Shown here piece after piece: positions 1-64,000 of a stretch of DNA of 64,000 nt. The translations under genes and the position numbers were made by a program. Origin of the DNA: a virus. Every line of letters begins with the position of its first letter. The stretch's first letter is position 1. The notes beneath the pieces are model-generated. The model searched no databases, was not told where the DNA came from, and saw nothing but the letters and a program-made list of their open reading frames with translations. The stretch covers positions 7,807 through 71,806 of IMG/VR virus record IMGVR_UViG_3300025617_000977; one strand, given 5' to 3'.

Positions 1-2
1 TG

Positions 3-182
3 AAGCCACCAGCAACTAAAACAGACACAATGAGCCAAAAGAAAGTTCGTGAAGTATCAGATGCTGTTGTAAGTGTATGGGATGTAAATGCCAAGGGATG
101 GCGTAGTTTCCGTTACGAAAGAGTAAATATTGTTAATGTTGTAGACGAATATAAAACCGAATGGTACGGAGGATCCGAATAA
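3..182 (+). CDS. 3' part of WYL-like/SH3 beta-barrel (DUF2693-type) phage protein, 5' truncated
   Basis: Manual translation of frame 3 gives ...VVSVWDVNAKGWRSFRYERV..., ending TAA at 180-182. Confidence 0.7.
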   Translation, partial: KPPATKTDTMSQKKVREVSDAVVSVWDVNAKGWRSFRYERVNIVNVVDEYKTEWYGGSE

Positions 183-652
183 TGAAATTTAAAGAAATGT
201 ATTTCCACGCTGTTGTTATTGCAGTATGCGGAAGTTTTTTAACAAGTGTAGCACAAGCAGAAACAACTAATGCAAATATCCAAGATCATTACAAGACTGT
301 GATCGAACAACAACCATACCGTGTTGAAGTATGCAAGGATGTACAAACTCCTGTTTACGGTAATGTAGGCAGTGGTGCAAGCGCAGGCGATGTACTAGGT
401 GGTATGATCATTGGTGGACTTATTGGTAAGGGTGTTACCAATAAAGATAATGGTGCGGCCGCTGGCGCAGTTATTGGTGGTATGATTGCCGCTGATAAAA
501 ATCAAAATAAACAGGGTATTACTGGCTATCGCACAGAGCGCCAATGTAGCGTAGAAACACGTTACGAAGAAACCCAGCGTGAAGTTTATAGTCATAGCAC
601 AGTTACATTCTATGCTGATGGCAGTAAGCGAACACTAAAATTTAATAGGTAA
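182..652 (+). CDS. secreted/envelope protein with glycine-zipper 2TM motif
   Basis: Signal-peptide-like N-terminus ending AQA; GGMIIGGLIG...GAAAGAVIGGMIA glycine zipper; start placed at ATG 182 overlapping the upstream TAA. Confidence 0.7.
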   Translation: MKFKEMYFHAVVIAVCGSFLTSVAQAETTNANIQDHYKTVIEQQPYRVEVCKDVQTPVYGNVGSGASAGDVLGGMIIGGLIGKGVTNKDNGAAAGAVIGGMIAADKNQNKQGITGYRTERQCSVETRYEETQREVYSHSTVTFYADGSKRTLKFNR

Positions 653-656
653 AAGT

Positions 657-1214
657 ATGCATCACCAAACAGACACATTACATGAAAGTAACTATTTCCA
701 AATATTTCCTACTTTGGTAGCAATGTACGAATTAGTCGGATATCATCCTGCTGAAGAACAAAAAGTAAAAGGACTTATCGAAAAAGAGAACAATGATACA
801 AAATCATTCTTAGATGACAATCGTTTACTATTATTGAAGCAACACATGAATGATTGTCTTAAAGCATACTCAAACGAGTACGGTGCTCAATATTATGAAA
901 TCAAAGAATCGTGGTACAAAAAGATTCCGAACGGACAAGGACTAGCACCAACAACATATCCAAATGAACTGTTTATTGGTTATTACTTTCCACATGCACA
1001 TGAACAGGGAAATCATTTACTGTTAGATACTCCGTTTGAATCGACAGTCCATGTTCCAAAAGAAAATAGTGTTAGTATCTATACAGCAAAGAACGAAAAG
1101 ATATTACTCGACGCTGGTCGACTAGTTATTGTCCCTGCATCCATTAATCAACAATTAACAACAAATACAATGGATGATATGGATGTGATTATGTTTAATG
1201 TCCAATCTTGCTAA
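657..1214 (+). CDS. degenerate 2OG-Fe(II) oxygenase-like protein (TIGR02466-like fold)
   Basis: FPT N-terminus, SWY, GYYFP, LVIVP and terminal FN align with 13744..14385, but the metal-binding His residues are missing. Confidence 0.6.
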   Translation: MHHQTDTLHESNYFQIFPTLVAMYELVGYHPAEEQKVKGLIEKENNDTKSFLDDNRLLLLKQHMNDCLKAYSNEYGAQYYEIKESWYKKIPNGQGLAPTTYPNELFIGYYFPHAHEQGNHLLLDTPFESTVHVPKENSVSIYTAKNEKILLDAGRLVIVPASINQQLTTNTMDDMDVIMFNVQSC

Positions 1215-1241
1215 ATTGGTAAACTACATTTAAAAAAGTTG

Positions 1242-1270
1242 TTGACTTTGTTACAATTACAGTGTATAAT
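1242..1270 (+). promoter_or_regulatory. sigma70-type early promoter
   Basis: TTGACT-N17-TATAAT. Confidence 0.8.
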
Positions 1271-1331
1271 ATAAAAGATGAATAGGAATAATCTTGTTCA
1301 CGTTTTTTAGAAAACACAAAGGAGATAGTCA

Positions 1332-1604
1332 ATGACTACTAAAACTAAAACAATCCAAGAAAGAGTATTAACTGCTCTTGAGTCAGGTAAGACACTTACA
1401 GCGGCAGACATTAAAAACCGTTATGGTGCAGGTAACCCAGCGGCAGTGATCCAATCACTACGTTTTGCAGGTAACCCAATCTTTCTTAACACAAGAAAGA
1501 ACAGCAAAGGCCAAACAGTATCACGTTACGTAATGGGTACAAAGGCTACTAGAAAAGTAATTGGTGCAGGTTACAAAGCACTAGCACAAGGTTTACTAGA
1601 CTAA
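1332..1604 (+). CDS. small winged-HTH DNA-binding protein
   Basis: AGGAG SD; RVLTALESGKTLTAADI...NPAAVIQSLR winged-HTH pattern. Confidence 0.7.
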   Translation: MTTKTKTIQERVLTALESGKTLTAADIKNRYGAGNPAAVIQSLRFAGNPIFLNTRKNSKGQTVSRYVMGTKATRKVIGAGYKALAQGLLD

Positions 1605-1633
1605 TAGTAACTTGATGTTATTTTCTTTTTGAG

Positions 1634-1665
1634 AATAGGCGGCCATTGTGTCGCCTATTTTCTTT
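1634..1665 (+). terminator. Rho-independent terminator
   Basis: Stem AATAGGCGGC / GTCGCCTATT followed by a T-rich run. Confidence 0.75.
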
Positions 1666-2904: not shown

Positions 2905-3113
2905 CATTACCAATTGAAAGAACAAATGCAGTACTAAATGTAGAACGATTCCTAATGGACTTGCGAGATCCTAAAAAGTATCCACGGGTACCGAGTGAAG
3001 TTCGCAAGCAAGCAAGTAGCCTACTCAAGCACTATCCACGTAAGTTTGATATGATGGAGCCGGCGGAAAGTTTTGAACCTATTACAGAATGGTCATATGA
3101 AAAGGAAGAATAA
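2901..3113 (+). CDS. BPSL0761-like small phage protein
   Basis: MTLPxERTNAV...PRVP..VR..A..LLKHYP pattern. Confidence 0.65.
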   Translation: MTLPIERTNAVLNVERFLMDLRDPKKYPRVPSEVRKQASSLLKHYPRKFDMMEPAESFEPITEWSYEKEE

Positions 3114-4252
3114 TGGATCAACGAATTAATAATATTCTTGCAAAAGAAACAGACAGACAGCATCAAACTATAGAACTTATCGCAAGTGAGAATTTTGCAA
3201 GTGAAGCAGTGATGCAACTTGCAGGCAGTGTGTTTACTAACAAGTATGCTGAAGGCTATCCGGGCAAGCGTTACTACAACGGTTGCGAACACATGGACGA
3301 GATTGAAACACTTGCTATTGAACAGTTAAAAGAACTGTACGGCTGTGAGTTTGCTAATGTTCAACCACACTGTGGTGCTAATGCCAACACAGCAATCTAT
3401 CTTGCATTTCTCAAACCAGGTGACAAGATCCTAGGTATGGACTTAGCAAGTGGTGGTCACTTGTCACACGGTGCACCAGTTAATATCTCTGGTAAGATTT
3501 ACGAAGCGCATTCATATGGTGTAGATGAAGCAGGCTGGCTTGATTACGATGCAATATATAAACAAGCAGAAGAAGTACAACCTCGTATAATCGTTGCAGG
3601 TGCAAGTGCTTATCCACGTGAGATTGATTGGGAGAAGTTCCGTGCTATTGCTGACAATGTAGGTGCATTATTGTTAGTTGATATGGCACACTATTCAGGA
3701 CTTATTGCAGGCGGTGTGTATCCGTCACCTGTACCTTACGCAGACTTTGTTACTTCAACTACACACAAAACACTACGTGGTCCTAGAGGTGGTATTATCC
3801 TATGGAACGATGAAGCATTTACAAAGAAGATTAACAGTGCAATCTTCCCAGGTACACAAGGCGGTCCGTTGATGAACATTGTTGCCGCTAAAGCACAAGC
3901 GTTCGTAGAAGCAAATACAAGCAATTTTAAGCAGTACAGTGCAGACGTTGTACGCAACGCTAAGGCTATGTGTGATGTGCTTAGACAGCGCGATATGACG
4001 GTGCAAACCGGCGGTACTGACTCGCACATTATTCTTGTGGATCTAAGCGACAGCAAGTACAGTGGGCGTGAAGCCGCAGACTTGTTGGAAGAAAATGGCA
4101 TCACTGTAAACAAAAACGGTATTCCAAATGATCCACGTAACTTTGTAGAAACAAGTGGCATCCGTATTGGCACTGCCGCAGAAACTACACGCGGTCATGA
4201 CGAAATGTGGTTCCGCAAACTAGCACATAAGATTGCAGATATTTTGGAGTAA
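3113..4252 (+). CDS. glyA: serine hydroxymethyltransferase
   Basis: LIASENF, NKYAEGYPGKRYY, GGHLSHG, PLP-lysine motif TTHKTLRGPRGG, SGIRIGT. Confidence 0.97.
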   Translation: MDQRINNILAKETDRQHQTIELIASENFASEAVMQLAGSVFTNKYAEGYPGKRYYNGCEHMDEIETLAIEQLKELYGCEFANVQPHCGANANTAIYLAFLKPGDKILGMDLASGGHLSHGAPVNISGKIYEAHSYGVDEAGWLDYDAIYKQAEEVQPRIIVAGASAYPREIDWEKFRAIADNVGALLLVDMAHYSGLIAGGVYPSPVPYADFVTSTTHKTLRGPRGGIILWNDEAFTKKINSAIFPGTQGGPLMNIVAAKAQAFVEANTSNFKQYSADVVRNAKAMCDVLRQRDMTVQTGGTDSHIILVDLSDSKYSGREAADLLEENGITVNKNGIPNDPRNFVETSGIRIGTAAETTRGHDEMWFRKLAHKIADILE

Positions 4253-14466: not shown

Positions 14467-14916
14467 ATGGCAAGACATTTAAGTACAAAACACTACGGAC
14501 ACAACATTGGCTTATCAGCAGTGTTCCGTCAACCTAACGCAGATCATTCACACTGTCATTTGCTACATGGTTATTCATTAGCATTTACATTTACATTTGG
14601 ATGTGATCATCTAGATAACAAGAACTGGGCTGTTGACTTTGGCGGGCTAAAGCCTTTGAAGAAGTGGTTAGAAGATCACTTTGATCACAAAACAGCAATT
14701 GATAAAGACGATCCGCACATGGACAAGTTTATGGAACTACAAGAACTTGACCTAGCAGAGATTGTTGTAATGGATGGTGTCGGCGCAGAAAAGTTTGCGG
14801 AACACGCATTTAACTTTGCAGATAAACTTGTGCGTGAAATGAGTGACAATCGTTGCTACTGTGTACGAGTAGAATGTGCAGAGCACGGAGCGAATTCAGC
14901 AATATACGAGGCATAA
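14467..14916 (+). CDS. queD: 6-carboxy-5,6,7,8-tetrahydropterin synthase (QueD/PTPS family)
   Basis: HCHLLHGY, VDFGGLK, FDH, AE and terminal E..NSA motifs; AGGAG SD. Confidence 0.88.
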   Translation: MARHLSTKHYGHNIGLSAVFRQPNADHSHCHLLHGYSLAFTFTFGCDHLDNKNWAVDFGGLKPLKKWLEDHFDHKTAIDKDDPHMDKFMELQELDLAEIVVMDGVGAEKFAEHAFNFADKLVREMSDNRCYCVRVECAEHGANSAIYEA

Positions 14917-16468: not shown

Positions 16469-17507
16469 ACGTATAGGCTTCGCATGTAAATACATGCACC
16501 CAGATCAAACGCAGAAGAAGAAACTGCTTGAAGAAATTCAACGACCACTAAATACTCGTAGCACAACAGTACAGTGGCTCAACCGTCAGACTCGTGATGT
16601 TGCTGAAGAACGCTTGTGGGATATTATGGTCCACAATATTCAGTCATACTACAATCTGATTGAGTATGTAGGGAGTTTACCAAATGAATTACGAATGGTT
16701 CGACTTGGCAGTGATGTTCTTCCTGTTTACACTCAGCGTGATTGGGCTTACTATTGGCAGCAACCTGATGTTCGAGCGTATTGCGAAAAAGCATTTGCTA
16801 GAGTCGGACAACTTGCAAGAACACTTGATGTTAGACTTAGTATGCATCCTGGTCAGTTTACCGTTCTTGCTAGTGACAACGCTGAAATTGTCGAGAGGAG
16901 CATAGAAGAATTTGAATATCACACCGATGTCATCCGCTATATGGGTTACGGACAATCATTCCAAGACTTCAAGTGCAACGTCCACATATCGGGTCGAAAA
17001 GGTCCACAAGGCATTATCGACGCACTTAAACGACTCTCGCCTGAAGCAAGAAACACAATCACAATCGAAAACGATGAAAACAAATGGGGAGTTGAACACA
17101 GCCTCGAACTTGTCGACCATTGCGCACTCGTACCAGATCTACACCACCACTGGTGTCGTGAAGGAAATTACCTTTCACCAACCGACGATAGAGTTAAACG
17201 CATAATTGATTCATGGCGAGGCGTTCGCCCTGCATTGCATTACAGTTATAGTCGTAACGAAGCATTACCTGAAAACTTTGCACACAATGACTTCCCTGAT
17301 ATGAAAGCATTACTTGAAGCAGGACACAAGAAAGCAAAACTTCGTGCTCATAGCGATTATTATCCTAATCCTGTGGTAAATGAGTATGCACTTAGTTTCT
17401 TAGATAACTTTGATATCATGTGTGAAAGCAAGATGAAGAACCTTGCTAGTATTGACCTATATAAATACTACTCAGAAAAGACCAGCAAGCAAAAACTTGT
17501 TGCATAA
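16458..17507 (+). CDS. uvsE: UV damage endonuclease (UvsE/UVDE)
   Basis: RIGFAC, RLGSD, RLSMHPGQF, IENDE, DLHHH, HYS, AHSDY, DIMCESK. Confidence 0.92.
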   Translation: MTIKRIGFACKYMHPDQTQKKKLLEEIQRPLNTRSTTVQWLNRQTRDVAEERLWDIMVHNIQSYYNLIEYVGSLPNELRMVRLGSDVLPVYTQRDWAYYWQQPDVRAYCEKAFARVGQLARTLDVRLSMHPGQFTVLASDNAEIVERSIEEFEYHTDVIRYMGYGQSFQDFKCNVHISGRKGPQGIIDALKRLSPEARNTITIENDENKWGVEHSLELVDHCALVPDLHHHWCREGNYLSPTDDRVKRIIDSWRGVRPALHYSYSRNEALPENFAHNDFPDMKALLEAGHKKAKLRAHSDYYPNPVVNEYALSFLDNFDIMCESKMKNLASIDLYKYYSEKTSKQKLVA

Positions 17508-27639: not shown

Positions 27640-30324
27640 ATGTCCTTGGCTAAAAAGGTCCTAAAACGAGTGTATATGGTTACACTTAAATCAAAAGACG
27701 ACTTAGATGATTTCTATGACGATATGCAAACACCCGGTGGTGCATTGTATATTCCGGATAGGGCAATTGTTACAGCAAACCAAAGACCAAATTCAAGGAC
27801 AACAGAATACTGGCTTACTGATGCAGAAGCAGATTTAGTTAATAACGATGCAAGAGTAAAAGCCGTTGAACTTAACCCTGCAGACCGAGGATTAGAAGTT
27901 GACGAGTTTGAAATCATTGATCAAACCGGAGTGTATGCGAGAAACAGCGGAAATACCAATACAGATTTAAATTGGGGATTACTACGCTGTGTCGACGGAG
28001 AAAATCGGGATGAAGGTGGCGGCAAATGGGGTGCAGGCGATACTGAAGTTACTGCTACTATTCAACTAAATGCTACTGGTCGAAATGTTGACTGTATTAT
28101 TTGTGACGGTAACGGTGTATACACTGGACATCCAGAGTATGACCAACCCTCGGCGATGAACATAGACGACGGTTCGCAAACTAGAATTAACTTAATTGAT
28201 TGGAATCAATTCCAAGATGACATTAATGCTCCAGATAATTATACTTACTCTATCCCAGGAAGTTATCATGCAAATCACGTAATGGGCACTGTTGGCGGTA
28301 ATCGTCAAGGATGGGCAAGAAACGCAAACCTATATAACTTGTATTACTACGCTGGCGATATTGGTAATAGTAACTTTCCTTACGTGTTTGATTATATTAG
28401 AGCATTTCACGAGCAAAAGGACGTTAACCCCGAAACGGGATATAAAAATCCTACTGTAGTAAACAACAGTTGGGGAATGAGTATTTTTCCAACAGAGTGG
28501 TCATTTTCACAAATAACAGCAGTGACTTATCGAGGCACACGATTTGTACCGACCGGTGACAGAGTGTATGACGGTGCATACGGTGTATATACTTCAACAG
28601 AAAAATTAGAGGACTTTACAGGTAATCCTGGAGATGGTCTAGGGCAACGTATTACTACATCCGGAACTGAAGGTACTCCAAATGGTGACTTTGGATCAAC
28701 TCCAGCAGGATGGACACGAACTGGTGGTGAAATACAACTTCAAGTTGCAGAAATTCCTTCTACCCCAATTGTAGTACAAGTGCAAGGACCGGCAACTGTT
28801 CAAGCACAACACAACGTTGCTACACAAGGTATAACAGGCACATCAGAAATTGATCTAAGTTTAACTATTCGAAGTGCTAATAATACTGTAATCGCATCTG
28901 AAACAGATTCACAAACATCAGTTGACGGCGGATTTGTTGAAATTGATCTGAATATCGGAAGCACTACATTACCTAACAACGAAATTTACACTATAACATA
29001 TGAAACTACAGTTACTGAAGGTATTGATCCAACTACATCAGCAGACCTAAATGCTACAATTGTTGGATTCACGGGAGGCGATGCTACGGCTACTGTAACA
29101 TCATTAGGAACACAATCTATTGGAAGTACAGCAACTTTGACTGCAAGTGGCAGTCCTACAGTTGGCAGCGCAGACGATGGATATTGGACAATTAATTTAC
29201 CATTTGATATCACATACCTAAGCGAAAATTATAGTACTATATACATGGGCACAAACAGTTATCTAACGTTTGGCAGCGGCTCCACACAGTATAGTGGCAT
29301 TGACGAAAACACTCCGGCACTACCAAAACTAATGATAGCAGGAGGGGATCGAAAAGGGTTTAGAGTATATTATGGTGCTAGTGGTACTGCTGGATCTAGA
29401 ATATTTAGATTAATTTTTGAAGGACATGTTTCTAACTCAGGCGGTGATGAACTTAATCCTTCTTTAAGATATGAATATAAATTTTACGAAGCAACTCCAA
29501 CTCAAATCGATTTAGTAATTGAAACAAATAATGCATTTGATGCAACTGGTACATTTACTAATGCACAACTTAATAATTGGGGATTTATTTCCGGGCAACG
29601 CATTCCGTCAAGGGTTGCGGCATTAGATGCAGATATCGAAGATGCAATTGATGCAGGTGTTATTACTATCGGTGCCGCTGGTAACGGACGATGGAAACAT
29701 GATGTTCCAGGTGGACCTGATTGGGATAATACATTTGAACTTAACGGATCTAATCCAATTTACTACATGCGGGGGACATCACCAACAGCAAATGACAATA
29801 CAGTAGATGGTGATTATGACATCCCTAATATTTGTGTTGGTGCAACTGACATAGGACTTACTGCTGATTTAGATCGAAAAGTTAGTTTTAGTGACTGTGG
29901 TCCGGGTGTAGATATTTACGCTCCGGGTACATATATTATGAGTTCAAGGACAGGCGGTTCTACAACTGATCCAAGAAACAGTTCGTTTCTAATAGGTAAA
30001 ATATCAGGAACGTCAATGGCCAGTCCTCAAGTAGCCGGACTGGTGGCTTGTATTGCAGAAACATACCCGCACTTTAATCAAGAACAAATGAAAGAGTATT
30101 TGTTAAACAAATGGGCAGAGGATGATCAACTATGGGATGCGGCAACAAATATTCCAACTGATTCAGACGATCTGCAGGGATCACCAAACAAACACGCAAA
30201 ATATAATTACGAACGTCCTTTAACTGGTCTAGCGTATCCTAAAAAGGATTATAATCTAAGACCCGCAACAGGCATTCAATATCCTCGTCCAAAGAGGACT
30301 GTGATTAAGAGACAACCGGAATAG
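27640..30324 (+). CDS. virion-associated subtilisin-like (S8) protease with large internal insertion
   Basis: Asp (IICDG), His (HANHVMGTVGG), NNSWG, oxyanion Asn (AAGN), Ser (GTSMASPQVAG). Confidence 0.88.
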   Translation: MSLAKKVLKRVYMVTLKSKDDLDDFYDDMQTPGGALYIPDRAIVTANQRPNSRTTEYWLTDAEADLVNNDARVKAVELNPADRGLEVDEFEIIDQTGVYARNSGNTNTDLNWGLLRCVDGENRDEGGGKWGAGDTEVTATIQLNATGRNVDCIICDGNGVYTGHPEYDQPSAMNIDDGSQTRINLIDWNQFQDDINAPDNYTYSIPGSYHANHVMGTVGGNRQGWARNANLYNLYYYAGDIGNSNFPYVFDYIRAFHEQKDVNPETGYKNPTVVNNSWGMSIFPTEWSFSQITAVTYRGTRFVPTGDRVYDGAYGVYTSTEKLEDFTGNPGDGLGQRITTSGTEGTPNGDFGSTPAGWTRTGGEIQLQVAEIPSTPIVVQVQGPATVQAQHNVATQGITGTSEIDLSLTIRSANNTVIASETDSQTSVDGGFVEIDLNIGSTTLPNNEIYTITYETTVTEGIDPTTSADLNATIVGFTGGDATATVTSLGTQSIGSTATLTASGSPTVGSADDGYWTINLPFDITYLSENYSTIYMGTNSYLTFGSGSTQYSGIDENTPALPKLMIAGGDRKGFRVYYGASGTAGSRIFRLIFEGHVSNSGGDELNPSLRYEYKFYEATPTQIDLVIETNNAFDATGTFTNAQLNNWGFISGQRIPSRVAALDADIEDAIDAGVITIGAAGNGRWKHDVPGGPDWDNTFELNGSNPIYYMRGTSPTANDNTVDGDYDIPNICVGATDIGLTADLDRKVSFSDCGPGVDIYAPGTYIMSSRTGGSTTDPRNSSFLIGKISGTSMASPQVAGLVACIAETYPHFNQEQMKEYLLNKWAEDDQLWDAATNIPTDSDDLQGSPNKHAKYNYERPLTGLAYPKKDYNLRPATGIQYPRPKRTVIKRQPE

Positions 30325-45353: not shown

Positions 45354-46184
45354 ATGGACTACTATTCTATATTAGGCGTTTCAAAAAATGCTACAGAAAA
45401 AGATCTAAAAAAAGCATACAAAACACAAAGTATGCAACATCACCCCGACCGTGGCGGTGATGAAGAAAAGTTTAAGCAGATTAACGAAGCGTATACTACG
45501 CTAAAAGATCCCCAAAAGAAAGCCATGTACGATCAGTACGGAACGGCTGATCCTCAACAACATCACCAACAGCAAGGATTTCATCAAGGATTTAATCCCC
45601 AAAATATGGAAGATATCTTTGGTTCGTTTTTTGGGCAAGGATTTCAACAAAACCAAAGAAGGCAACGTATGCAAAATGCAGACGTAACTATTCAATGTGA
45701 CATTACTCTTGAAGAAGTATATAACGGTAAAGGTGTTATTGCAACATTTAGAACAAGGTCAGGCAGAGAACAAACTGTAAACATTGACATTCCAAAAGGT
45801 TCCAGACACGGCGACACTATCCGTTACCAGGGGCTAGGTGATGATAGTATTCCTGGGTTACCAAAGGGAAACTTGAATGTTAGAATTCGCATACTACGAC
45901 ATCCAATTTATTCAGTTGATGGATTTAACTTACATGCCGAAGTTAAAATTAATGTATTCGATTTAATGCTAGGAACAGCCACAACTTTAAATATCCCCAG
46001 CGGCCGAGCAATAAGTATAAACATACCACAAGGCACCCAGCCAGGAACTGTAATGAGTATAAATGGAAAAGGTTTACCAGATTACAATACTGGACGTTCA
46101 GGCAATATTTACTTAAAAATACAAGGCGAGATTCCAAAGGATCTTACCCAAGACAAACTTGAACAAATTAGGAAAATTAAATGA
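45354..46184 (+). CDS. DnaJ-class chaperone (type II, no zinc finger)
   Basis: DYYSILGV, HPD motif, G/F-rich linker, C-terminal substrate-binding domain. Confidence 0.92.
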   Translation: MDYYSILGVSKNATEKDLKKAYKTQSMQHHPDRGGDEEKFKQINEAYTTLKDPQKKAMYDQYGTADPQQHHQQQGFHQGFNPQNMEDIFGSFFGQGFQQNQRRQRMQNADVTIQCDITLEEVYNGKGVIATFRTRSGREQTVNIDIPKGSRHGDTIRYQGLGDDSIPGLPKGNLNVRIRILRHPIYSVDGFNLHAEVKINVFDLMLGTATTLNIPSGRAISINIPQGTQPGTVMSINGKGLPDYNTGRSGNIYLKIQGEIPKDLTQDKLEQIRKIK

Positions 46185-46702
46185 AACTAGTATATCACCC
46201 AAGCGAATGGTTAGACAAAGAAGTTGATGCATTTAACTTTGACAGTATGGATGCTAAACAAATTGAAAAAGACATGATTGAAATCATGCAAAAACAAAAC
46301 GGTGTCGGATTAAGTGCTAATCAAGTAGGACTTAATGCTAGAATTTTTGTAATGGAGCCAGATGGACTAGAAGGTTACGATGAACCTTTCGCAATCATTA
46401 ATCCTGTCGTTGAAGCAGTAGTAGACGAGCAGGTAGTAGGAGAAGAAGGCTGTTTAAGTTATCCCGGACTATTCTTTAAAGTAACTCGTGCTAAGGCTTT
46501 GGTGGCAAAGTTTCTTGACAGTAGTGCTAAAGAGTGTACAATAGAGTTTATAGGCTGGAATGCTAGAATCTTTCAACACGAGTTTGATCACTTATTAGGA
46601 ATTAATTACACTGACAGAGTAAGTAAACTTAAACTTGATATGGCAAAGAAAAAGCAACAGAAGTTATTAAAAAAATATAAGGAAATTTTAACAAATGGTT
46701 GA
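46181..46702 (+). CDS. def: peptide deformylase
   Basis: GVGLSANQ, EGCLS, QHEFDH. Confidence 0.95.
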   Translation: MKLVYHPSEWLDKEVDAFNFDSMDAKQIEKDMIEIMQKQNGVGLSANQVGLNARIFVMEPDGLEGYDEPFAIINPVVEAVVDEQVVGEEGCLSYPGLFFKVTRAKALVAKFLDSSAKECTIEFIGWNARIFQHEFDHLLGINYTDRVSKLKLDMAKKKQQKLLKKYKEILTNG

Positions 46703-49630: not shown

Positions 49631-50299
49631 ATGAGAAAAACGTTTAAAGATTATCTAGCAGAATCAGACGGATTTGGATCTTCACCTAAACCAACAGTAA
49701 GAAAACCTGTTCGTTATGATCCTGATCAATCAATGCCAAGTATAATGAAATACGCATATCAACCGGATGTAACAAGAGCGTTGAGAAAAGCGGCGGACCT
49801 TTCAGATGATGCGCCTGTTTATTTTGACGATGCAGATCTAGTATATGGTGACGAAACTGTTTGGCCAAGATGCGGAGTAGATGATGACTGTACATTCGGT
49901 GATGCGGTTAAAGCACTTAAAAAGTTTGCAAGCAAAGGTGAAAGTGAAATCGATCGTATTAAAGACCTATCAGGCATCACTGAGCAAACTATTGACGATG
50001 ATGACGATATTCACGAATGGTTTGGTGACATGTACTACAACGATGACGATATTGTAGACGAAGCAGAATATCAAGGACGTAAAGTTAAACTAGGCAAGCC
50101 TATGCAAGGTGATACTAAAAAGTTTAAAGTGTACGTTAAGAATCCAAAGGGCAACGTAGTCAAAGTTAACTTTGGCTCTAAAGAACATAAAATTAAAAAG
50201 TCCAATCCTAAACGTAGAAAGTCGTTTAGAGCAAGACATAACTGTGATAACCCAGGACCGCGTCATAAGGCACGCTATTGGTCATGTAGAAAATGGTAG
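49631..50299 (+). CDS. putative internal head protein (modular)
   Basis: N-terminus MRKTFKDYLAE resembles the T4 capsid-targeting sequence; basic C-terminal EAEYQGRKV...YWSCRKW module. Confidence 0.7.
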   Translation: MRKTFKDYLAESDGFGSSPKPTVRKPVRYDPDQSMPSIMKYAYQPDVTRALRKAADLSDDAPVYFDDADLVYGDETVWPRCGVDDDCTFGDAVKALKKFASKGESEIDRIKDLSGITEQTIDDDDDIHEWFGDMYYNDDDIVDEAEYQGRKVKLGKPMQGDTKKFKVYVKNPKGNVVKVNFGSKEHKIKKSNPKRRKSFRARHNCDNPGPRHKARYWSCRKW

Positions 50300-51815: not shown

Positions 51816-53269
51816 AATTTAATGATGTAAAAGATATTAATAAAAAAGTTCCGGTTCCTAGATCATTTAAACATTATCATCAAATGGCTGAAAATGGTGG
51901 ACGCATTGTAAAAGGTGTTAACACAACTCCTGATGTAAGTACTGATGAAATTAAAACCCAAGCCGCAAAGTTTGGCAACAAAGTAGACAAAGATGGACGT
52001 CCGCCCACACTAAGCAAAAAAGTTAAAGGCTCTAAAACAAATGTGCTGTTTAACTTAGGCATGTCCGAAAGCGTCAACGAGTCTAAAGAATTAGCATCAG
52101 CAAGTGAAATTTATGTAGACATGGACGGTGTTCTTGTTGACTTCTTTGGTGAATGGACTAAGATGATGGGTGTTAGTGATTGGAAGCAAATTAAAAATGT
52201 TGATCAAGCACTACAGAAAATTAGAGATAAAGACGACTTTTGGTTATCACTGAAGCCTACTAAGAATGCCGGTAAGTTGTTGTCTATTATTAAAAAAATT
52301 AAAGGCGAATATAATATTTTATCTGCTCCGTTGGCAGGAGATCCTAAAGCAGAACCTCACAAACGTGAATGGATTTCAAAATACTTAAAAGCGTTTCCAC
52401 CTAAAAACGTTATCATTACAGCAGACAAACAAAAATATGCAACACAAGCAGACGGTACTCCAAACATTTTAATCGATGACTTTGGCCAAAATGTTTCTAA
52501 ATGGGAAGCATCCGGCGGCGTTGGTTTTAAGCATAAAGATCATAAGTTTGAAAGAACTGCTACGCAATTAGCCGATTATATAAGTCCTGAGCGCAATGAA
52601 GAAATTGCAGAAATATTAGGCTTTACTACACGAACTCCAAAACGTGCAACAATAAAAAAGAAGCGTCCACCAGAAGAACTTAGCGTAAAAGACAAAGTAG
52701 CAAAACGTAGAGCAATGGCTGCTAAAGGCAATCCAGATGCTTTTAAATCGGGTGCAGTTAAAGAAGGTGATTTAGTATTAAATCATTCTAAATTACGTTC
52801 TTTTATTATTGATATGATTTCAGATAAAATTAATAAAACTGATGATGTTGAACAACTTTCTAAATGGTTAAAGTTAATCGTAGGAAAAGAAGTTGCACCT
52901 CGAGGTGCTAAGAGTTATACTATTTCTGCAGAGGATGTGGTAGAAGCAATTTCAAAAATACAAAATCGTATATCAGAAGGTGATGCAATACCTAATCCTA
53001 AAAATACATTCCTTACAAAATCAGACACAGCATACGATCATTATAAAGTAGGCACAAACTTAGCAAACTTAAAAAAAGTTCCAAAGGGTGCTAACTATGA
53101 CGAACCGGACATTGTAATTGCTCCATATGCAGGTCAAAAAGAAATGAAATATCTTATGAAGCAACTAAAGCGCATTGGTTACGATGTACAAGATGCGGCT
53201 GGGTATAAAGATGCACATTACGATGAAGATTCTGGAAATGAGTCTAGATATCTTGTTGGGATTAAATAA
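51812..53269 (+). CDS. modular protein with 5'(3')-nucleotidase-like HAD domain
   Basis: IYVDMDGVLVDF, ILSAP, KREW, LIDD, W...GG; flanked by short basic modules. Confidence 0.8.
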   Translation: MKFNDVKDINKKVPVPRSFKHYHQMAENGGRIVKGVNTTPDVSTDEIKTQAAKFGNKVDKDGRPPTLSKKVKGSKTNVLFNLGMSESVNESKELASASEIYVDMDGVLVDFFGEWTKMMGVSDWKQIKNVDQALQKIRDKDDFWLSLKPTKNAGKLLSIIKKIKGEYNILSAPLAGDPKAEPHKREWISKYLKAFPPKNVIITADKQKYATQADGTPNILIDDFGQNVSKWEASGGVGFKHKDHKFERTATQLADYISPERNEEIAEILGFTTRTPKRATIKKKRPPEELSVKDKVAKRRAMAAKGNPDAFKSGAVKEGDLVLNHSKLRSFIIDMISDKINKTDDVEQLSKWLKLIVGKEVAPRGAKSYTISAEDVVEAISKIQNRISEGDAIPNPKNTFLTKSDTAYDHYKVGTNLANLKKVPKGANYDEPDIVIAPYAGQKEMKYLMKQLKRIGYDVQDAAGYKDAHYDEDSGNESRYLVGIK

Positions 53270-53469
53270 TGCTGATATTTGAGATTACTGAAAACTTTGC
53301 TGACGGTAAGAAAAAAGGCAAAAGCCGTCCAGGTAGAGTAAAGAAGTCAGGTGCTAGTTGCAATGGATCAGTTACAGCACTACGTAAACGTGCTAAGAAC
53401 GCAAGCGGTGAGAAGGCTAAAATGTATCACTGGTGTGCTAATATGAAGTCAGGTAAGAAGAAGAAATAA
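53269..53469 (+). CDS. small basic putative internal head protein
   Basis: MLIFEITE then NFADGKKKGKSRPGR...HWCANMKSG. Confidence 0.7.
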   Translation: MLIFEITENFADGKKKGKSRPGRVKKSGASCNGSVTALRKRAKNASGEKAKMYHWCANMKSGKKKK

Positions 53470-55658: not shown

Positions 55659-55940
55659 ATGCAACGTACCATTAACTTTTGGAAAGACTCGTATTACAGT
55701 GACAGTGTAGCATTTTACTTTGAACTTGTTAGTTTTGTTTTCACTGTTACGGCAAGTATGACGCTTGCATTAACAGCAAACGATCCTAATATGGTATATG
55801 TATACCCGGGTTTCTTTGTAGGTAGTGTAACACAAGCATATGCAAGTTACAGGCGCGGCGCGGCATGGGTATTACTGCTCACGTCATACTTTGCCGTAGT
55901 TAATGTATTTGGATTTGGAGTAGCAGTTGGATATTGGTAG
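55659..55940 (+). CDS. three-TM membrane protein
   Basis: Hydrophobic 93 aa ORF. Confidence 0.7.
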   Translation: MQRTINFWKDSYYSDSVAFYFELVSFVFTVTASMTLALTANDPNMVYVYPGFFVGSVTQAYASYRRGAAWVLLLTSYFAVVNVFGFGVAVGYW

Positions 55941-56373
55941 AATCAATATTTGGTTAGATAAGCACTTAGATGATCTAGCAAAAGGAAGATGTCCTTGGGC
56001 AAATAGCGATGTTCCTAGAATACATACTGATCAATATTTAGATGTAATGAAAGCAATGTTTGAATTTCCAAAAGACAAACATGCTGTTCTAGTTGTTCTT
56101 CATGACGTTGAAGATCAGCACGAAGGTAAAGAACTATTTGGATTATGTAGGACACAATACTTTTTAGACCGTAATTTGTTGTTTATCGAATACAATTATA
56201 TGGATTACGAAAATGACTTAAATGATCCGACTATTAGGTTCTTTGTAATACAAAAGTTTGATGAAACAAAAGAAGCAAGTAATAAGTTATTGACCAAAGG
56301 GTACTATAATGAGTATCCTGACAATCGAAACTTTCGAAAAATAAGAGGGCAACATGATGAAATATATGGTTGA
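55927..56373 (+). CDS. hypothetical protein
   Basis: 148 aa, CPWA motif. Confidence 0.6.
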   Translation: MDIGRINIWLDKHLDDLAKGRCPWANSDVPRIHTDQYLDVMKAMFEFPKDKHAVLVVLHDVEDQHEGKELFGLCRTQYFLDRNLLFIEYNYMDYENDLNDPTIRFFVIQKFDETKEASNKLLTKGYYNEYPDNRNFRKIRGQHDEIYG

Positions 56374-56941: not shown

Positions 56942-59614
56942 TTGAGTTACGTAGACGCATTTTTTGACCGTAATGCTGATCTAATTCGCTGTGTAGAGCG
57001 AAAAGAAGGTAAGCGGACATATTCAGAATACCCAGTAAAATATACATTTTACTATAAAGACCCAAGAGGCAAATACAAAAGCATCTTTGGCGATCCGTTG
57101 AATCGCATTGTGTGTAAGAACACAAAAGACTTTCGTAAAGAACAAGCAATTAATAAAAACAAAGACTTGTTTGAAAGCGATATTAATCCAATCTTCCAAT
57201 GCTTGAGTGAAAACTATCTCAATCATGATGCACCCAATCTAAACATTTGCTTTTTCGATATTGAGACAGACTTTGATCCAGAGCGTGGCTTTGCTGATCC
57301 TAGTGATCCATTTATGCCCATTACTGCTATTACTGTACATCTACAGTGGCTTGATGCACTTGTTACATTAGCACTTCCTCCTAAGACACTTACAATGGAA
57401 CAAGCACAGGAAGAATGTAAAGAATGGGGAGACCAAGTTATCTTGTTTGAAGACGAAGGTAAGATGCTTGATACATTCCTTGATCTAATTCAAGATGCTG
57501 ACATTTTGACAGGTTGGAACAGTGAAGGTTATGATATTCCATATACTGTTAATCGTGTACAACGAGTCCTAAGTAAAGAAGATACAAGACGTTTTTGTCT
57601 TTTCAATCAGTTTCCAAAAAAACGTGAGTATGAAAAGTTTGGGAAACAAGCGGAAACCTATGACCTAATAGGCAGAGTGCATTTAGATTCTTTGGAATTA
57701 TATCGTAAATACACGTATGAAGAAAGACACACTTATCGACTGGATGCCATTGGCGAACTTGAAGTTGGCGAAAACAAAACTGTGTACGAAGGTACGCTCG
57801 ATCAACTTTATAACAATGACTTCAAAACGTTCATCGAGTACAACAGACAAGACGTTGCACTACTGGACAAGTTGGACCAAAAACTAAAGTTTATTGACTT
57901 ATCCAATGAACTTGCTCATGCAAATACTGTTTTGCTACAGACCACTATGGGTGCTGTTGCTGTTACAGAGCAAGCAATTATTAACGAAGCACATCATAGA
58001 GGTATGCAGGTTCCAAATAGAATCCGACGTGAACCAGGCTCAGAACCAGCCGCAGGTGCTTACGTAGCATATCCTAAAGTAGGTGTACATAAGTGGATTG
58101 GTTCAATGGATTTGAACTCACTGTATCCGTCAGTGATTCGTGCATTAAATATGGATCCGGCAACTGTTGTAGGACAACTTCGTCCAGAACTAACAAACAA
58201 ATATGTTGGTGAGCAAATGGGACTAAAGAAAAAGTCTTTTGCGGCGGCATGGGAAGGTAAGTTTGGTACTGACGAGTTTGAGGCAGTTATGGATCAGCGT
58301 CGAGATGTAAGTATTACAGTTGATTGGGAAAATGGTCAATCAGATGTAATGAGTGGCGCACAGATCTACAAAGTAATTTACGATAGCAATCAGCCTTGGA
58401 TGCTTAGTGCTAATGGTACAATCTTTACAACAGAGTTTGAAGGTGTTATTCCTGGACTACTAAAGCGTTGGTACAGCGAACGTAAAGAACTACAAGGTAA
58501 AATGCGTAAAGCAATTGCCGCAGGTAACAAGACAGAGATTGCGTTTTGGGACAAGCGACAGTTGGTTAAGAAGATTAACTTGAACAGTTTGTATGGTGCT
58601 ATTCTTAATCCAGGTTGTAGATTCTTTGACGGTCGTATTGGACAATCAACTACGCTTACTGGTCGTCAGATTGTTAAGCACATGAGTGCAGAAGTAAACA
58701 AAGTTATTACAGGTGAGTACAATCATGTAGGTAAGAGTGTTATTTACGGTGATACTGACTCTGTATACTTTAGTGCATACCCTATATTACGTGCAGAAAT
58801 TAATAACGGTACTATTCCTTGGAGTAAGGACAATGTTATTTCACTGTATGACCAAGTATGCGAATCAGCAAACAAGTCATTTCCAAAGTTTATGAGTGAC
58901 ACATTCCATTGTCCGAATAGCAGAGCAGATGTTATTGCGGCAGGGCGTGAAATTGTTGCTGAGTCAGGATTGTTTATTACTAAGAAGCGTTATGCGGCAC
59001 TGATTTATGACAATGAAGGTCAGCGTATGGATGTAGATGGAAAGCCGGGCAAAGTAAAAGCAATGGGCTTGGATCTTAAACGCAGTGACACTCCAGTGTT
59101 TATGCAAGACTTCCTTAGTGAGATCCTTATTAAAGTATTGCAAGAAGGAGATGAAGAAACTATCCTTGATATGATTGCTGAGTTTAGAAGTGAATTTAAA
59201 TCTCGTCCAGGTTGGGAGAAAGGTTCGCCTAAACGTGCAAACAAGATTGGTCACTATCAGCGACTAGAGCAAAAGCAAGGCAAAGCAAACATGCCCGGAC
59301 ACGTTCGAGCAAGCATTAACTGGAACACACTCAAGCGTATGAACAGTGACAAGTACTCGCAAGAAATTGTAGATGGTATGAAAGTCATTGTTTGTAAACT
59401 AAAACAGAATCCAATGGGCTATACTAGTGTTGCGTATCCTGTGGATGAGATGCATTTGCCGCAATGGTTTAAAGATTTGCCGTTTGACAGTGATGCTATG
59501 GAAGGTACTATTATTGATAACAAATTAGATAACTTAATTGGTGTATTGAAGTATGATTTAGAAAGTACTAAACAAAACAATACATTTAACACTTTGTTTG
59601 ACTTCGGAGATTAA
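56942..59614 (+). CDS. family B DNA polymerase
   Basis: ExoI DIETD, ExoII WNSEGYD, ExoIII YNRQD, DLNSLYPS, KINLNSLYG, YGDTDS, KKRY; TTG start after AAGGAG. Confidence 0.96.
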   Translation: MSYVDAFFDRNADLIRCVERKEGKRTYSEYPVKYTFYYKDPRGKYKSIFGDPLNRIVCKNTKDFRKEQAINKNKDLFESDINPIFQCLSENYLNHDAPNLNICFFDIETDFDPERGFADPSDPFMPITAITVHLQWLDALVTLALPPKTLTMEQAQEECKEWGDQVILFEDEGKMLDTFLDLIQDADILTGWNSEGYDIPYTVNRVQRVLSKEDTRRFCLFNQFPKKREYEKFGKQAETYDLIGRVHLDSLELYRKYTYEERHTYRLDAIGELEVGENKTVYEGTLDQLYNNDFKTFIEYNRQDVALLDKLDQKLKFIDLSNELAHANTVLLQTTMGAVAVTEQAIINEAHHRGMQVPNRIRREPGSEPAAGAYVAYPKVGVHKWIGSMDLNSLYPSVIRALNMDPATVVGQLRPELTNKYVGEQMGLKKKSFAAAWEGKFGTDEFEAVMDQRRDVSITVDWENGQSDVMSGAQIYKVIYDSNQPWMLSANGTIFTTEFEGVIPGLLKRWYSERKELQGKMRKAIAAGNKTEIAFWDKRQLVKKINLNSLYGAILNPGCRFFDGRIGQSTTLTGRQIVKHMSAEVNKVITGEYNHVGKSVIYGDTDSVYFSAYPILRAEINNGTIPWSKDNVISLYDQVCESANKSFPKFMSDTFHCPNSRADVIAAGREIVAESGLFITKKRYAALIYDNEGQRMDVDGKPGKVKAMGLDLKRSDTPVFMQDFLSEILIKVLQEGDEETILDMIAEFRSEFKSRPGWEKGSPKRANKIGHYQRLEQKQGKANMPGHVRASINWNTLKRMNSDKYSQEIVDGMKVIVCKLKQNPMGYTSVAYPVDEMHLPQWFKDLPFDSDAMEGTIIDNKLDNLIGVLKYDLESTKQNNTFNTLFDFGD

Positions 59615-61105: not shown

Positions 61106-61830
61106 AAGACATTTTACAAGACATCGTTGCCCACACACACTCGTTAGGATTTCTTAACATTGTGAAGGTAACAAGTGAAGCAGATACAACTATCGAATCC
61201 ATGGCGGAAGACCGTAGTGTTATTTTAAGTTCACAAACTAAAAATCCAATCAGCGAGTTTACAGGTACGTTTGGTATGCCTAACTTAGAAAAGTTAGCAC
61301 TACACTTAAAAAATCCTGAATACAAAGCAGATGCAAAAATTGATGTTGTACAAGCAGATCGCAATGGCGAAGTTGTTCCTACACACATTCACTTTGAAAA
61401 TACAGCAGGCGATTTTGAAAACGACTATCGCTTTATGAATAAACAGATCATTGAAGAAAAGTTAAAGACTGTTAAGTTCAAAGGTGCATCATGGGATGTT
61501 GATGTTGAGCCCACAATGGCGGCAATTCAACGTATGAAATTAATGAGTGCGGCACACGCAGAAGAACCTACATTTACTGTAAGTACTACTGATAATAACT
61601 TAGTGTTTAGTTTTGGTGATGCTAGTTCACACGCAGGATCATTTGTTTTTGCAACTGACGTTACTGGAACACTTAAACACTCTTGGAGTTGGCCTGTAGC
61701 ACAAGTACAAGCAATCTTAAACTTAGATGGTAAGATTACTATGAACATTTCCGATCAAGGTGCAATGCAACTTACAGTTGACAGTGGTTTAGCAGAATAC
61801 AATTATATTCTTCCTGCACAAACTAAGTAA
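61102..61830 (+). CDS. sliding clamp (gp45/PCNA-like)
   Basis: 242 aa, two-domain alpha/beta pattern, C-terminal YILPA, replication-block context. Confidence 0.7.
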   Translation: MKDILQDIVAHTHSLGFLNIVKVTSEADTTIESMAEDRSVILSSQTKNPISEFTGTFGMPNLEKLALHLKNPEYKADAKIDVVQADRNGEVVPTHIHFENTAGDFENDYRFMNKQIIEEKLKTVKFKGASWDVDVEPTMAAIQRMKLMSAAHAEEPTFTVSTTDNNLVFSFGDASSHAGSFVFATDVTGTLKHSWSWPVAQVQAILNLDGKITMNISDQGAMQLTVDSGLAEYNYILPAQTK

Positions 61831-61841
61831 GGAGAGAAGAA

Positions 61842-63380
61842 TTGAATACGGACTTAACTAAAGAACAAAAAGACTACGCAATCTTTCTGCCTGCTATTAG
61901 TGGCTTCTATGCTACGTTTGTCGGTAAGCAACGCAGAGAGGAGTATGTAGACAAAAGCCGTATTCCTTTTCCTAACAACGAAATGGAAAGTCTTAATTGG
62001 TTTAACAAGAAAGACGGTCTGTTTAACTATCAATGGAGTTTGTATTCCGCTGGACACGCAGAACTTGATGTAAACAAGGATGCTCCTAAAGAAGACATGA
62101 TCAGAAACAGAGATAGAAACAATTCGTGGTTACTTGGTGACTCAGGCGGGTTCCAGATTGGTAAAGGTGTATGGGAAGGCGATTGGAAGAATCCTAATTG
62201 CCCTAAAGCACAAAAGAAACGTGAACAAGTTCTTGCGTGGATGGATGCTTACATGGACTATGGAATGATTCTTGATATTCCAGCGTGGGTTGCACGATCT
62301 CCTGCAGGTGCAAAAGCAACCGGTATTAGCACATACGAAGAAGCCGTTGCCGCAACACGCATTAACAACGATTACTTTATGGCCAATCGCAATGGTAACT
62401 GTAAGTTTCTAAATGTTTTACAAGGTGAAAATCATGCTGATGCAGAAGATTGGTATCAGCAAATGAAAGACTATTGTGATCCAGCAAAGTATCCTGATAC
62501 ACACTTTAATGGCTGGTCAATGGGTGGACAGAACATGTGCGATGTGCATTTGGTTCTTAAACGTATTGTAGCACTACGTTTTGATGGTCTTCTTGAAAAA
62601 GGCATTCATGACTTTATGCACTTTCTAGGAACGTCAAAACTAGAATGGGCAACTTTATTAACCGACATTCAGAGAGCAGTAAGGAAATATCATAATGAAA
62701 ACTTTACAATTACTTTTGACTGTGCTAGTCCTTTCCTTGCAACCGCGAATGGACAAATCTATTGTGAACTCGAAACGAAAGATCGAACTAAATGGGTTTA
62801 CCGAATGGTACCTAGCATCGACAGTAAAGCACTAGCAACTGATACAACACCATTTAGTCAAGCATTTGTGCGTGAAGGCAAATATAAAAGTTTTAAAGAT
62901 TCGCCACTTACACAAAACTTGCAGGCTAAAGATATTTGTAAGTATGCACCTGGTGACCTAAATAAAATAGGCAAAGAAGGAAAAACATCGTGGGATAGTT
63001 TTTCTTATGCGATCCAAATGGGTCATAACGTGTGGAGCCACATTAATGCAGTTCAAGAAGCAAATAGACAATACGACACAGGAGCAGTTCCTGCAATGCT
63101 TGTGCAAGAGCAATTTGACAGGTTATTTTTCAGAGATGTTGTGGACACAATATTCGCAACTGATGACAGAGATAAAGCCAATCAAATCATCGAAGACTAC
63201 AGTAAGTTTTGGATGGCTATCCCAGGTACTAGAGGTGCTATCGGTAAAAAGACCGTAAATGCAAATACATATTTTGACAGTCTGTTTGACGTAGAGGATA
63301 ATGTTGTAGAAGATACTACTCACGAGGATGGTAGTTTTAGCGAAGAAGAAGAGAGTAAACTAGAACAACTCGAAGGATAA
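61842..63380 (+). CDS. tRNA/DNA-guanine transglycosylase-like protein (TGT/DpdA superfamily)
   Basis: DSGGFQ, MILDIP, NVLQG, GWSMGG, HFLG, FDCASP and HN, collinear with TGT motifs. Confidence 0.75.
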   Translation: MNTDLTKEQKDYAIFLPAISGFYATFVGKQRREEYVDKSRIPFPNNEMESLNWFNKKDGLFNYQWSLYSAGHAELDVNKDAPKEDMIRNRDRNNSWLLGDSGGFQIGKGVWEGDWKNPNCPKAQKKREQVLAWMDAYMDYGMILDIPAWVARSPAGAKATGISTYEEAVAATRINNDYFMANRNGNCKFLNVLQGENHADAEDWYQQMKDYCDPAKYPDTHFNGWSMGGQNMCDVHLVLKRIVALRFDGLLEKGIHDFMHFLGTSKLEWATLLTDIQRAVRKYHNENFTITFDCASPFLATANGQIYCELETKDRTKWVYRMVPSIDSKALATDTTPFSQAFVREGKYKSFKDSPLTQNLQAKDICKYAPGDLNKIGKEGKTSWDSFSYAIQMGHNVWSHINAVQEANRQYDTGAVPAMLVQEQFDRLFFRDVVDTIFATDDRDKANQIIEDYSKFWMAIPGTRGAIGKKTVNANTYFDSLFDVEDNVVEDTTHEDGSFSEEEESKLEQLEG

Positions 63381-63384
63381 TAAT

Positions 63385-63564
63385 ATGAGTTTGAACGAAC
63401 GTATTGAAATTTTATTAAAACAACATAAACAACTTGACAAAGAAATTGATCTTTGTTATAGTAACTATATTGCAGATCCGTTGTTGGATAAAATGAAGAA
63501 ACAGAAACTTGCTATTAAAGACGAAATCGAAAGACTAACTAGGACAGTTAAAAATGAAACGTGA
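63385..63564 (+). CDS. YdcH/DUF465-like small coiled-coil protein (below ORF-track cutoff)
   Basis: H..LDKEI...MKKQKLAIKDEI. Confidence 0.7.
   Translation: MSLNERIEILLKQHKQLDKEIDLCYSNYIADPLLDKMKKQKLAIKDEIERLTRTVKNET
63434..63462 (+). promoter_or_regulatory. sigma70 promoter (inside CDS)
   Basis: TTGACA-N17-TATAGT with extended -10 TG. Confidence 0.65.
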
Positions 63565-64000
63565 TTACGAAACAGGCGAAGCAGACAACGTTATCTTCTT
63601 CACAGGTGTAGAAGTTGAAAAGACTCCTGCGTTTGGCTTAAAGACATTGTTTGTAACGGGATTACAAGAACCGCACTTGATTCAAAAACATTACGATCAA
63701 GAACAGTGTGAGCATATTTTCTTTGGTGCTAATCATTCATATGATCCTGTAAAGAACGACGATTGGGAATCGTGGGAGAAATTGATTCAAGCATTCCTAG
63801 TAGCAGGTAAACTTTGTACTCTTGATATTCCGTTGGATGCTTGCAAAGACTTCCAAGAAGGGCCTCTTTGCGAATATGACAACTTTATTCCACAAATTCG
63901 TGTTCCATTGCCTTACACGAAACTTTGGAACTACAACACAATGGTAAAGATTGATGATGTAGACTTTAAGGCAACTAACCCAGGTGTCTGGTGTCATAGC
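63554..64000 (+). CDS. conserved phage hypothetical protein, 3' truncated
   Basis: Open frame from ATG 63554: MKRDYETGEADNVIFFTGVEVEKTPAFGLKTLFVTG...HIFFGANHS...KIDDVDFKATNPGVWCHS. Confidence 0.75.
   Translation, partial: MKRDYETGEADNVIFFTGVEVEKTPAFGLKTLFVTGLQEPHLIQKHYDQEQCEHIFFGANHSYDPVKNDDWESWEKLIQAFLVAGKLCTLDIPLDACKDFQEGPLCEYDNFIPQIRVPLPYTKLWNYNTMVKIDDVDFKATNPGVWCHS

Follow-up and report, generated by a model that had tools for sequence, protein, structure and literature searches.

Absence of AGCT and near-absence of GCWGC in a marine jumbo-phage genome fragment, probably reflecting type II restriction in its hosts

How does a stretch of viral DNA 64,000 bases long come to lack one short palindrome altogether and to retain almost no copies of a second? 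The stretch in question (termed here the window) comprises bases 7807-71806 of a single virus record of 71,806 bases, IMG/VR record IMGVR_UViG_3300025617_000977 (termed the contig), and the two words, both short palindromes, are AGCT, the AluI-type site, and GCWGC, the TseI/ApeKI-type site. A preliminary inspection of the letters alone (the sequence-only reading) had proposed their absence and near-absence, and had ascribed these to strong selection by host defence or by a phage nuclease; the analysis reported here confirms the observation and supports part of the interpretation. In our judgement the genome represented by the window has probably been purged of the sites of two orthodox type II enzymes, one AluI-type (AGCT) and one TseI/ApeKI-type (GCWGC), met by the phage in its hosts, the selecting agents presumably being host restriction endonucleases.

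AGCT occurs in neither the window nor the contig. The number expected in the window is 217.9 from base composition, 232.3 from a first-order Markov model and 160.0 from a maximal-order one; when synonymous codons were permuted within each of 102 contig open reading frames (ORFs), 200 times, the contig was expected to carry 200.7 +/- 11.6 copies, and the lowest shuffle had 178. GCWGC occurs four times, as GCAGC at window positions 16757, 29165 and 29273, all three already listed by the sequence-only reading, and as GCTGC at 52718, which that reading had overlooked; 74.0-80.6 were expected in the window under Markov models and 89.5 +/- 5.2 in the contig under the codon shuffle (lowest shuffle 73). 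Counting all words against Markov and codon-preserving nulls, the check that had been proposed, showed that no other 4-, 5- or 6-mer of the contig comes near AGCT (z -19) and GCWGC (z -18) in its depletion under the codon shuffle; codon usage and dinucleotide bias both fail to account for it. Other palindromes are present, as had been stated, with 235 copies of GATC and five of CTGCAG in the window. An apparent enrichment of GATC, about twofold over the first-order Markov expectation in all relatives, was rejected, the codon shuffle giving only 259 against 232.6 (z 2.6). Under the same shuffle, moderately low counts were found in the contig for GGCC (44 against 84.7, z -5.7), CGCG (28 against 57.8, z -4.8) and GCATGC (2 against 14.7); such counts may mark avoidance that is weaker or older, or else a general effect on GC-rich palindromes.

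Inspection of the coding sequences showed how the words are avoided. A codon ending in A is never followed by GCT (nnA|GCT, 0 against 140.7 expected), in agreement with the earlier remark on the spelling of Lys-Ala and Glu-Ala, and the remaining two phases are likewise empty (nAG|CTn, 0 against 35.5; AGC|Tnn, 0 against 30.2). Of the 95 Ala-Ala pairs, 57 begin with GCG, 37 with GCC, one with GCT and none with GCA, again as had been noticed; the commonest alanine codons overall are GCA (914) and GCT (401). Because Ala-Ala pairs begin with GCG or GCC, the word GCSGC is over-represented threefold in the contig (123 against 41.4 +/- 5.8 in the codon shuffle). Depletion is achieved through synonymous choices in all three codon phases.

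Relatives were retrieved from IMG/VR by a search with the DNA polymerase of the window, from which the best 80 rows (79 loci) of 599 related stretches were taken; nine of the 80 rows, with cover below 85%, were removed, and traits were mapped with three-state coding on a polymerase tree of the remaining 71. Whole records of five relatives (G001-G005) were used beside the contig itself (G000). GCWGC is entirely missing from every row of a 36-row clade (SH-aLRT support 88), and within it a nested clade of 31 rows (support 99) that includes the window is also poor in AGCT, its rows having 0-4 sites each where 16-80 are expected. In the sister group of five rows AGCT is retained (193 against 274 expected, summed) and GCWGC is absent (0 against 65). 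Strong depletion of AGCT recurs in three further clades, L055-59, L042/43/48 and, in part, L063-72, and the tree requires a minimum of nine changes for AGCT and five for GCWGC; avoidance of the two words represents separate, clade-specific traits. Among the whole records, G001 (156,563 bases, 44% complete) has no AGCT, against 516 expected from the Markov model or 384 from the codon shuffle, and no GCWGC, against 149-169; G003 has six AGCT, and G004 (55 kb) carries 156 AGCT and no GCWGC. Since G000 and G001 are only 74.8% identical across 47 kb of aligned DNA and both are free of AGCT, the absence must be actively maintained. Strong selection against both motifs is supported, as the sequence-only reading had held, because the depletion survives the null models, is synonymous in all codon phases, is kept in relatives about 74% identical, and behaves as two separate traits.

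An absence this absolute also led us to consider a technical artefact, such as loss of the words in assembly or library preparation, or systematic miscalling where a motif is modified. Nothing was found that speaks for it, and we regard its probability as close to negligible: the same pattern recurs in dozens of IMG/VR contigs from different metagenomes; the stretch is present in marine or seawater metagenome runs of several studies, Logan contigs from marine runs of other studies matching it with 2-37 differences per 0.5-2 kb piece (one Logan run matches with zero differences and may be the source sample); the ORFs are intact and cover 96.7% of the contig, nearly all on the plus strand; and sister lineages assembled alike have normal AGCT, as does G004.

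Comparison of aligned sites bears on a further explanation, in which a host or phage enzyme would methylate the motifs to 5-methylcytosine and the sites would then decay neutrally by deamination. Both motifs do hold a cytosine modified by known methyltransferases, although the reported cases are N4-methylcytosine: the passages available from PMC6329791 describe M.AbaBS3I as a GCWGC methyltransferase of that type and report the same modification of AGCT in Thaumarchaeota. When the 46 AGCT sites of G004 that align to G000 were examined, their counterparts were TGCT (9), AGTT (5), AACT (4), ATCT (3), AGCA (3), AGTC (3) and others (19), and seven other comparisons of the AGCT-containing G004 and G005 with AGCT-free genomes gave similar spectra, with TGCT the commonest (5-15 per comparison), AGTT at 2-6, AACT at 2-4, AGCA at 1-4 and many others. 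The replacement spectrum in these alignments is broad and shaped by synonymous choice, unlike the C-to-T changes that deamination of methylated cytosine would leave: only a minority of counterparts are AGTT or AACT, and a transversion product is the most frequent. GCWGC is replaced by GCSGC, which is no C-to-T product. Nor did a C5 DNA methyltransferase (PF00145) score above cut-off in six-frame searches of 30 records, themselves fragments (3-51% complete across the 30-31 records used in this and the following searches), in which control genomes matched. Complete loss of some 200-500 sites, with survivors that favour particular flanks, does not resemble neutral decay, and we consider this account highly improbable.

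The avoided words proved to be part of a larger and shifting set (expectations for CTAG, RCATGY, CATG and GCGC are first-order Markov unless the codon shuffle is named). CTAG is absent from G001 (0 against 391, or 290 by codon shuffle), occurs three times against 652 expected when summed over an 18-row subclade, and is missing from seven of nine rows of one subclade; the genome of the window keeps it (197 against 197). RCATGY is absent from a nine-row subclade (0 against 157), from the clade that avoids GCWGC only (0 against 90) and from L077-79, the nearest relatives of the window (0 against 61); the genome of the window has 52 against 98. G001 (L081-L088) further lacks every RCATGY word, among them ACATGT (0 against 86), GCATGC (0 against 27) and ACATGC (0 against 40), as well as TGCGCA (0 against 23); up to four or five motifs have been purged from it at once. 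CATG is reduced to 0-1 sites against 67-103 expected in L044-46 (one against 103 in L046) and to none against 32 in L055; G004 has four GCGC against 38 and a low count of CASTG; and ACWGT is absent from L038 (0 against 18). All these words are short palindromes; at least six different ones have been purged across lineages of one phage family, and the set differs between close subclades. If the phages met shifting sets of type II restriction systems, a changing, lineage-specific repertoire of this kind would result.

It is mainly because the purged palindromes are lineage-specific and fast-changing that we favour host restriction over a nuclease borne by the phage; the finding of at least six such palindromes across lineages, together with the failure of our searches to reveal a phage nuclease or methyltransferase of this kind, favours type II restriction by the host. 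Under this reading, unmethylated incoming phage DNA would be cut at every AGCT and GCWGC site, and mutations that create a site would for that reason meet strong counter-selection. Whatever the codon phase, synonymous codons allow either word to be avoided, and removal would proceed without change of protein, Ala-Ala becoming GCS-GCN and nnA-GCT becoming nnG-GCT or nnA-GCA.

The sequence-only reading had offered host defence and a phage nuclease as alternatives; the evidence does not strictly separate them, and it leans to the former. If the phage encoded nucleases that cut AGCT and GCWGC in host DNA, and kept its own genome site-free instead of methylated, elimination would have to be total, as self-cutting demands, and it is total over long stretches (0 of ~384-516 AGCT in the 156-kb G001). 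About 80% of the genome lies beyond the contig, many ORFs have no family match, and three small ORFs present in the AGCT-free G000-G003 have no counterpart in the syntenic part of G004 and G005, which do contain AGCT. Reading of the translations revealed no nuclease signature in these three, one being an acidic/basic low-complexity protein, and Pfam searches of 81 contig ORFs and of 89 ORFs from the initial 100 kb of G001 found no restriction-enzyme or type II family. The nucleases that were seen are UvdE, an Rv2179c-like exonuclease, SegE (GIY-YIG), SNase and a 5'-3' exonuclease. N6_N4_Mtase (PF01555) was not found above cut-off in six-frame searches of the 30 fragment records, controls again matching, and the 170 scanned ORFs contained neither a restriction-enzyme family nor a DNA methyltransferase; the nuclease or methyltransferase of matching specificity that had been suggested as a target thus did not emerge from the fragments searched. 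Turnover of at least six palindromes would need a matching turnover of phage nucleases, and some lineages tolerate a few sites, as G003 does. Chloroviruses encode restriction-modification systems that degrade host DNA, and they methylate their own sites; the present case resembles theirs in that four-base palindromes such as RGCY or CATG are tied to a virus, and differs in that the sites are absent rather than methylated and that no endonuclease and methyltransferase pair was found in the fragments. We consider phage-encoded nucleases an unlikely explanation, and it is slightly less likely again that AGCT and GCWGC nucleases encoded in the unseen ~80% shred host DNA, that the turnover of palindromes tracks these phage nucleases in place of host defences, and that the flanks of surviving sites, described below, mark their weak substrates.

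One candidate methyltransferase was examined and rejected as a DNA methyltransferase. It is a 324-residue protein resembling S-adenosylmethionine-dependent methyltransferases, encoded at contig positions 5766-6740 (L001), just upstream of the window, which on reading of its sequence has no (D/N/S)PP(Y/F) motif and which gave weak matches to PrmA, RsmD and similar protein or rRNA models. It has what looks like a double-E-loop sequence and would resemble protein arginine methyltransferases, which is unusual for a phage.

The few sites that survive are not a random sample. Each of the four GCWGC in the contig lies within TGGCWGC; between them they occupy three different codon phases, and each could have been removed synonymously. 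The codon shuffle predicts 10.6 +/- 2.8 TG-flanked sites among 89. In the distant and independently depleted clade L063-72, eight of 13 distinct survivors are likewise TG-flanked, compared with 49 of 365 (13%) in relatives with normal GCWGC; pooled over the two independent lineages the share is 12 of 17 (binomial p 1.1e-7). Surviving AGCT reads GAGCT in 8 of 11 cases in the 31-row clade and in 11 of 12 in L055-59, against 234 of 850 in AGCT-normal relatives. Population data were consulted as well: one variant in contigs of other runs, 45229 G>A, creates TGGCAGC, and among the 40 of 469 variant positions viewed none creates AGCT and this one creates TGGCAGC, a test that has no power because only 1.8% and 0.8% of random substitutions create a site. 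Dependence on flanks would be expected if an enzyme is the selecting agent; as a guess, the TG-GCWGC and G-AGCT flanks may be the contexts that the selecting enzymes cut least efficiently.

The same flanks suggest another possibility, that some sites are shielded by a DNA modification tied to sequence context, for example 7-deazaguanine placed at GA and GGC as it is in phage CAjan, and that what has been purged are those it cannot protect. Survivors have a G immediately 5' of the motif (G-AGCT, TG-GCWGC), and the contexts GA and GGC are those given for preQ0 in CAjan in the passages available from PMC7544227; a PTPS/QueD-like gene in the window and GTP cyclohydrolase I (FolE) in G001 add to the likeness to DpdA systems. 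G001 also has radical-SAM genes, which were not assigned to QueE. The PTPS/QueD-like gene is the sole window gene hinting at a 7-deazaguanine pathway, and by itself is no evidence of DNA modification; the earlier remark on 7-deazaguanine, which depended on it, is unsupported. TGT/DpdA (PF01702) was found in none of 30 fragment records (0 of 5 and 0 of 25) and in 14 of 14 control genomes, and QueC was above cut-off in none of 31, again fragments, while control genomes did match. The correspondence with CAjan fails quantitatively because most GA- and GGC-flanked sites have been purged too: protection at these contexts should leave many sites, yet GAGCT is absent from both G000 (56.5 expected) and G001 (103 expected), and GGCWGC numbers only 4 against 23.8 in the contig. 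The T at position -2 also matters, 12 of 13 G-flanked residual GCWGC being TG-flanked. Protective modification accordingly seems to us very unlikely.

What kind of phage is this, and in what host? CheckV places the record at ~20% completeness, implying a genome of about 350 kb. Pfam and PHROG matches reveal a distantly T4-like replication and structural set, comprising a family B DNA polymerase, a clamp-loader-like AAA protein, gp9/10-like baseplate N-termini and virion proteins. The named phages nearest to the polymerase are all jumbo phages (Sinorhizobium phage Phosso, 50%; Agrobacterium phage Atu_ph07, 46%; 121Q-like phages, ~42%), and their distance is too great for a host to be named from them. 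A megablast search of a phage collection with 8 kb from the window gave zero matches, and the passages available from Weinheimer and Aylward 2022 and from the moraphage paper yielded no lineage placement. Integrase and repressor families were absent from the Pfam matches of the 81 contig and 89 G001 ORFs, both sets drawn from incomplete genomes. Three genes of the contig, for a GH108 lysozyme that bears a peptidoglycan-binding domain, for an Rz-like spanin and for a peptide deformylase, led us to reject an archaeal host and indicate a bacterial host of Gram-negative type. Jointly with the host-restriction reading, it is likely that the window belongs to an uncultured, distantly T4-like marine jumbo phage of about 350 kb with such a host.

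Auxiliary genes of the contig include SHMT, ThyX, dCMP deaminase, a MazG-like protein, PhoH, peptide deformylase, DnaJ, a ClpB-like ATPase, ClpP, ferredoxin, several 2OG-Fe(II) oxygenases and sugar-nucleotide enzymes. Within one phage fragment (window 3113-4252 and 45354-48947; L001:5150-5773) SHMT, DnaJ, peptide deformylase, the ClpB-like ATPase, ClpP, a Cpn10-like protein and a parvulin-type peptidyl-prolyl isomerase make up an unusual host-like set for proteostasis and one-carbon metabolism. Two very large proteins are probably baseplate or fibre components: one of 2,224 residues with a T4 gp9/10-like N-terminus (window 18630-25304), and a 4,960-residue ORF of G001 without Pfam match (L082:4274-19156). 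G001 also carries seven clustered radical-SAM proteins, three with SPASM domains, beside two Asp/Arg beta-hydroxylase-like proteins, a TauD-like dioxygenase and an aminotransferase (L083:10391-L084:11522), an arrangement that resembles a cluster for peptide or metabolite modification. The codon shuffle also shows the word TAAATA to be about twofold rarer than expected (47 copies in the contig, where 89.0 are predicted, and 112 in G001, where 243.4 are), and the T4 late-promoter word TATAAATA occurs just twice in the contig (window 17460 and 26043), each 25-72 bases upstream of an ORF start. Features discussed above are located in Table 1.

Table 1. Positions of the depleted stretch, its surviving GCWGC sites and selected genes, in window coordinates
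Feature	Position	Strand	Remarks
AGCT-free, nearly GCWGC-free stretch, both strands	1..64000	.	Counts against Markov and codon-shuffle nulls
PTPS/QueD-like gene	14467..14916	+	PF01242, E 1.5e-14
Residual GCWGC, TGGCAGC context	16755..16761	+	UvdE-like gene; codons TGG-CAG-C
Residual GCWGC, TGGCAGC context	29163..29169	+	894-residue subtilase-domain protein; codons GGC-AGC
Residual GCWGC, TGGCAGC context	29271..29277	+	Same 894-residue subtilase-domain gene; codons GGC-AGC
Residual GCWGC, TGGCTGC context	52716..52722	+	485-residue NT5C-domain protein; codons ATG-GCT-GC
Three AGCT-free-associated small ORFs	49631-50299, 53269-53469, 55927-56373		Synteny comparison
Family B DNA polymerase	56942..59614	+	Marker for finding relatives and building the trait-mapping tree

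Several points weigh against host restriction as we have framed it. The phage SHMT, compared with GTDB species genomes, gave nine matches, at only 50-59% identity and in unrelated phyla, and no host signal. The lineages to which methylomes assign the two motifs do not fit: in the passages available from Hiraoka et al. 2019 and 2022, AGCT methylation occurs in Thaumarchaeota and Poseidoniia and GCWGC methylation in Chloroflexi, none of them Gram-negative bacteria of matching GC content. The proposal that the motifs may point to the host was not borne out; neither Thaumarchaeota nor Chloroflexi suit a phage with Gram-negative-type lysis genes and a peptide deformylase. The flank tolerance is partial, TGGCWGC being absent from G001-G005 (352 kb together) and GAGCT, as given above, from G000 and G001, and of the four clades depleted of AGCT two show no enrichment of GAGCT (L042/43/48, 4 of 14 survivors; L063-72, 12 of 41). 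Finally, the contig represents ~20% and the largest relative ~51% of a genome, and a phage nuclease, methyltransferase or modification pathway could lie beyond them.

Those same Hiraoka passages contain no genome that combines AGCT with GCWGC methylation, and they place CTAG in one Marinimicrobia genome and one other genome. The environmental GCWGC and AGCT methyltransferases, from Chloroflexi and Thaumarchaeota, were scored there as solitary, outside restriction-modification systems. RGCY is the commonest methylated motif among viral genomes in the portion of the marine study of Hiraoka et al. available, a frequency compatible with AGCT- and GGCC-directed restriction as a common marine pressure.

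If host restriction is the cause, type II restriction, including that by four-base cutters, would act on these phages, within their hosts, as a pressure both strong and quick to change, and the mosaic of avoided motifs would constitute a "barcode", for each lineage, of the restriction enzymes it has faced. Such barcodes could be matched to the methylomes and restriction-modification gene sets of marine metagenome-assembled genomes, which would make host assignment testable, and the survivor flanks TG-GCWGC and G-AGCT provide a checkable prediction on the substrate preferences of the enzymes. An exact-phrase full-text search of one library, which is not proof that the subject is unpublished, found no literature joining restriction-site avoidance with jumbo phages.

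The present case is one of restriction-site avoidance, a known phenomenon, of which Staphylococcus phage K, without GATC sites, is an example. The avoided words are identical to AluI-type and TseI/ApeKI-type recognition sequences. In the passages available from the survey of Rusinov et al. 2018 (PMC6286503), avoidance concerns mainly orthodox type II sites and non-temperate double-stranded DNA phages, and complete or near-complete elimination of sites is reported in about one-tenth of viral genomes. As far as those passages extend, our case resembles avoidance by virulent double-stranded DNA phages in that short palindromes fall far below the expectation from composition and codons, that removal is synonymous, and that no cognate methyltransferase was found in the fragments searched. 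It differs from the surveyed cases in that the phage is an uncultured marine jumbo phage, whose genome of about 350 kb means that hundreds of sites per motif had to go; further differences are the purging of up to four or five motifs in G001, the turnover of motifs between close subclades, and survivor flanks that are reproducible. Particular to this abundant uncultured family, then, are the completeness of avoidance over 72-156 kb, the number and turnover of motifs, and the flanks of the survivors, the extreme form being as much as 156 kb from which AGCT, GCWGC and CTAG are all missing.

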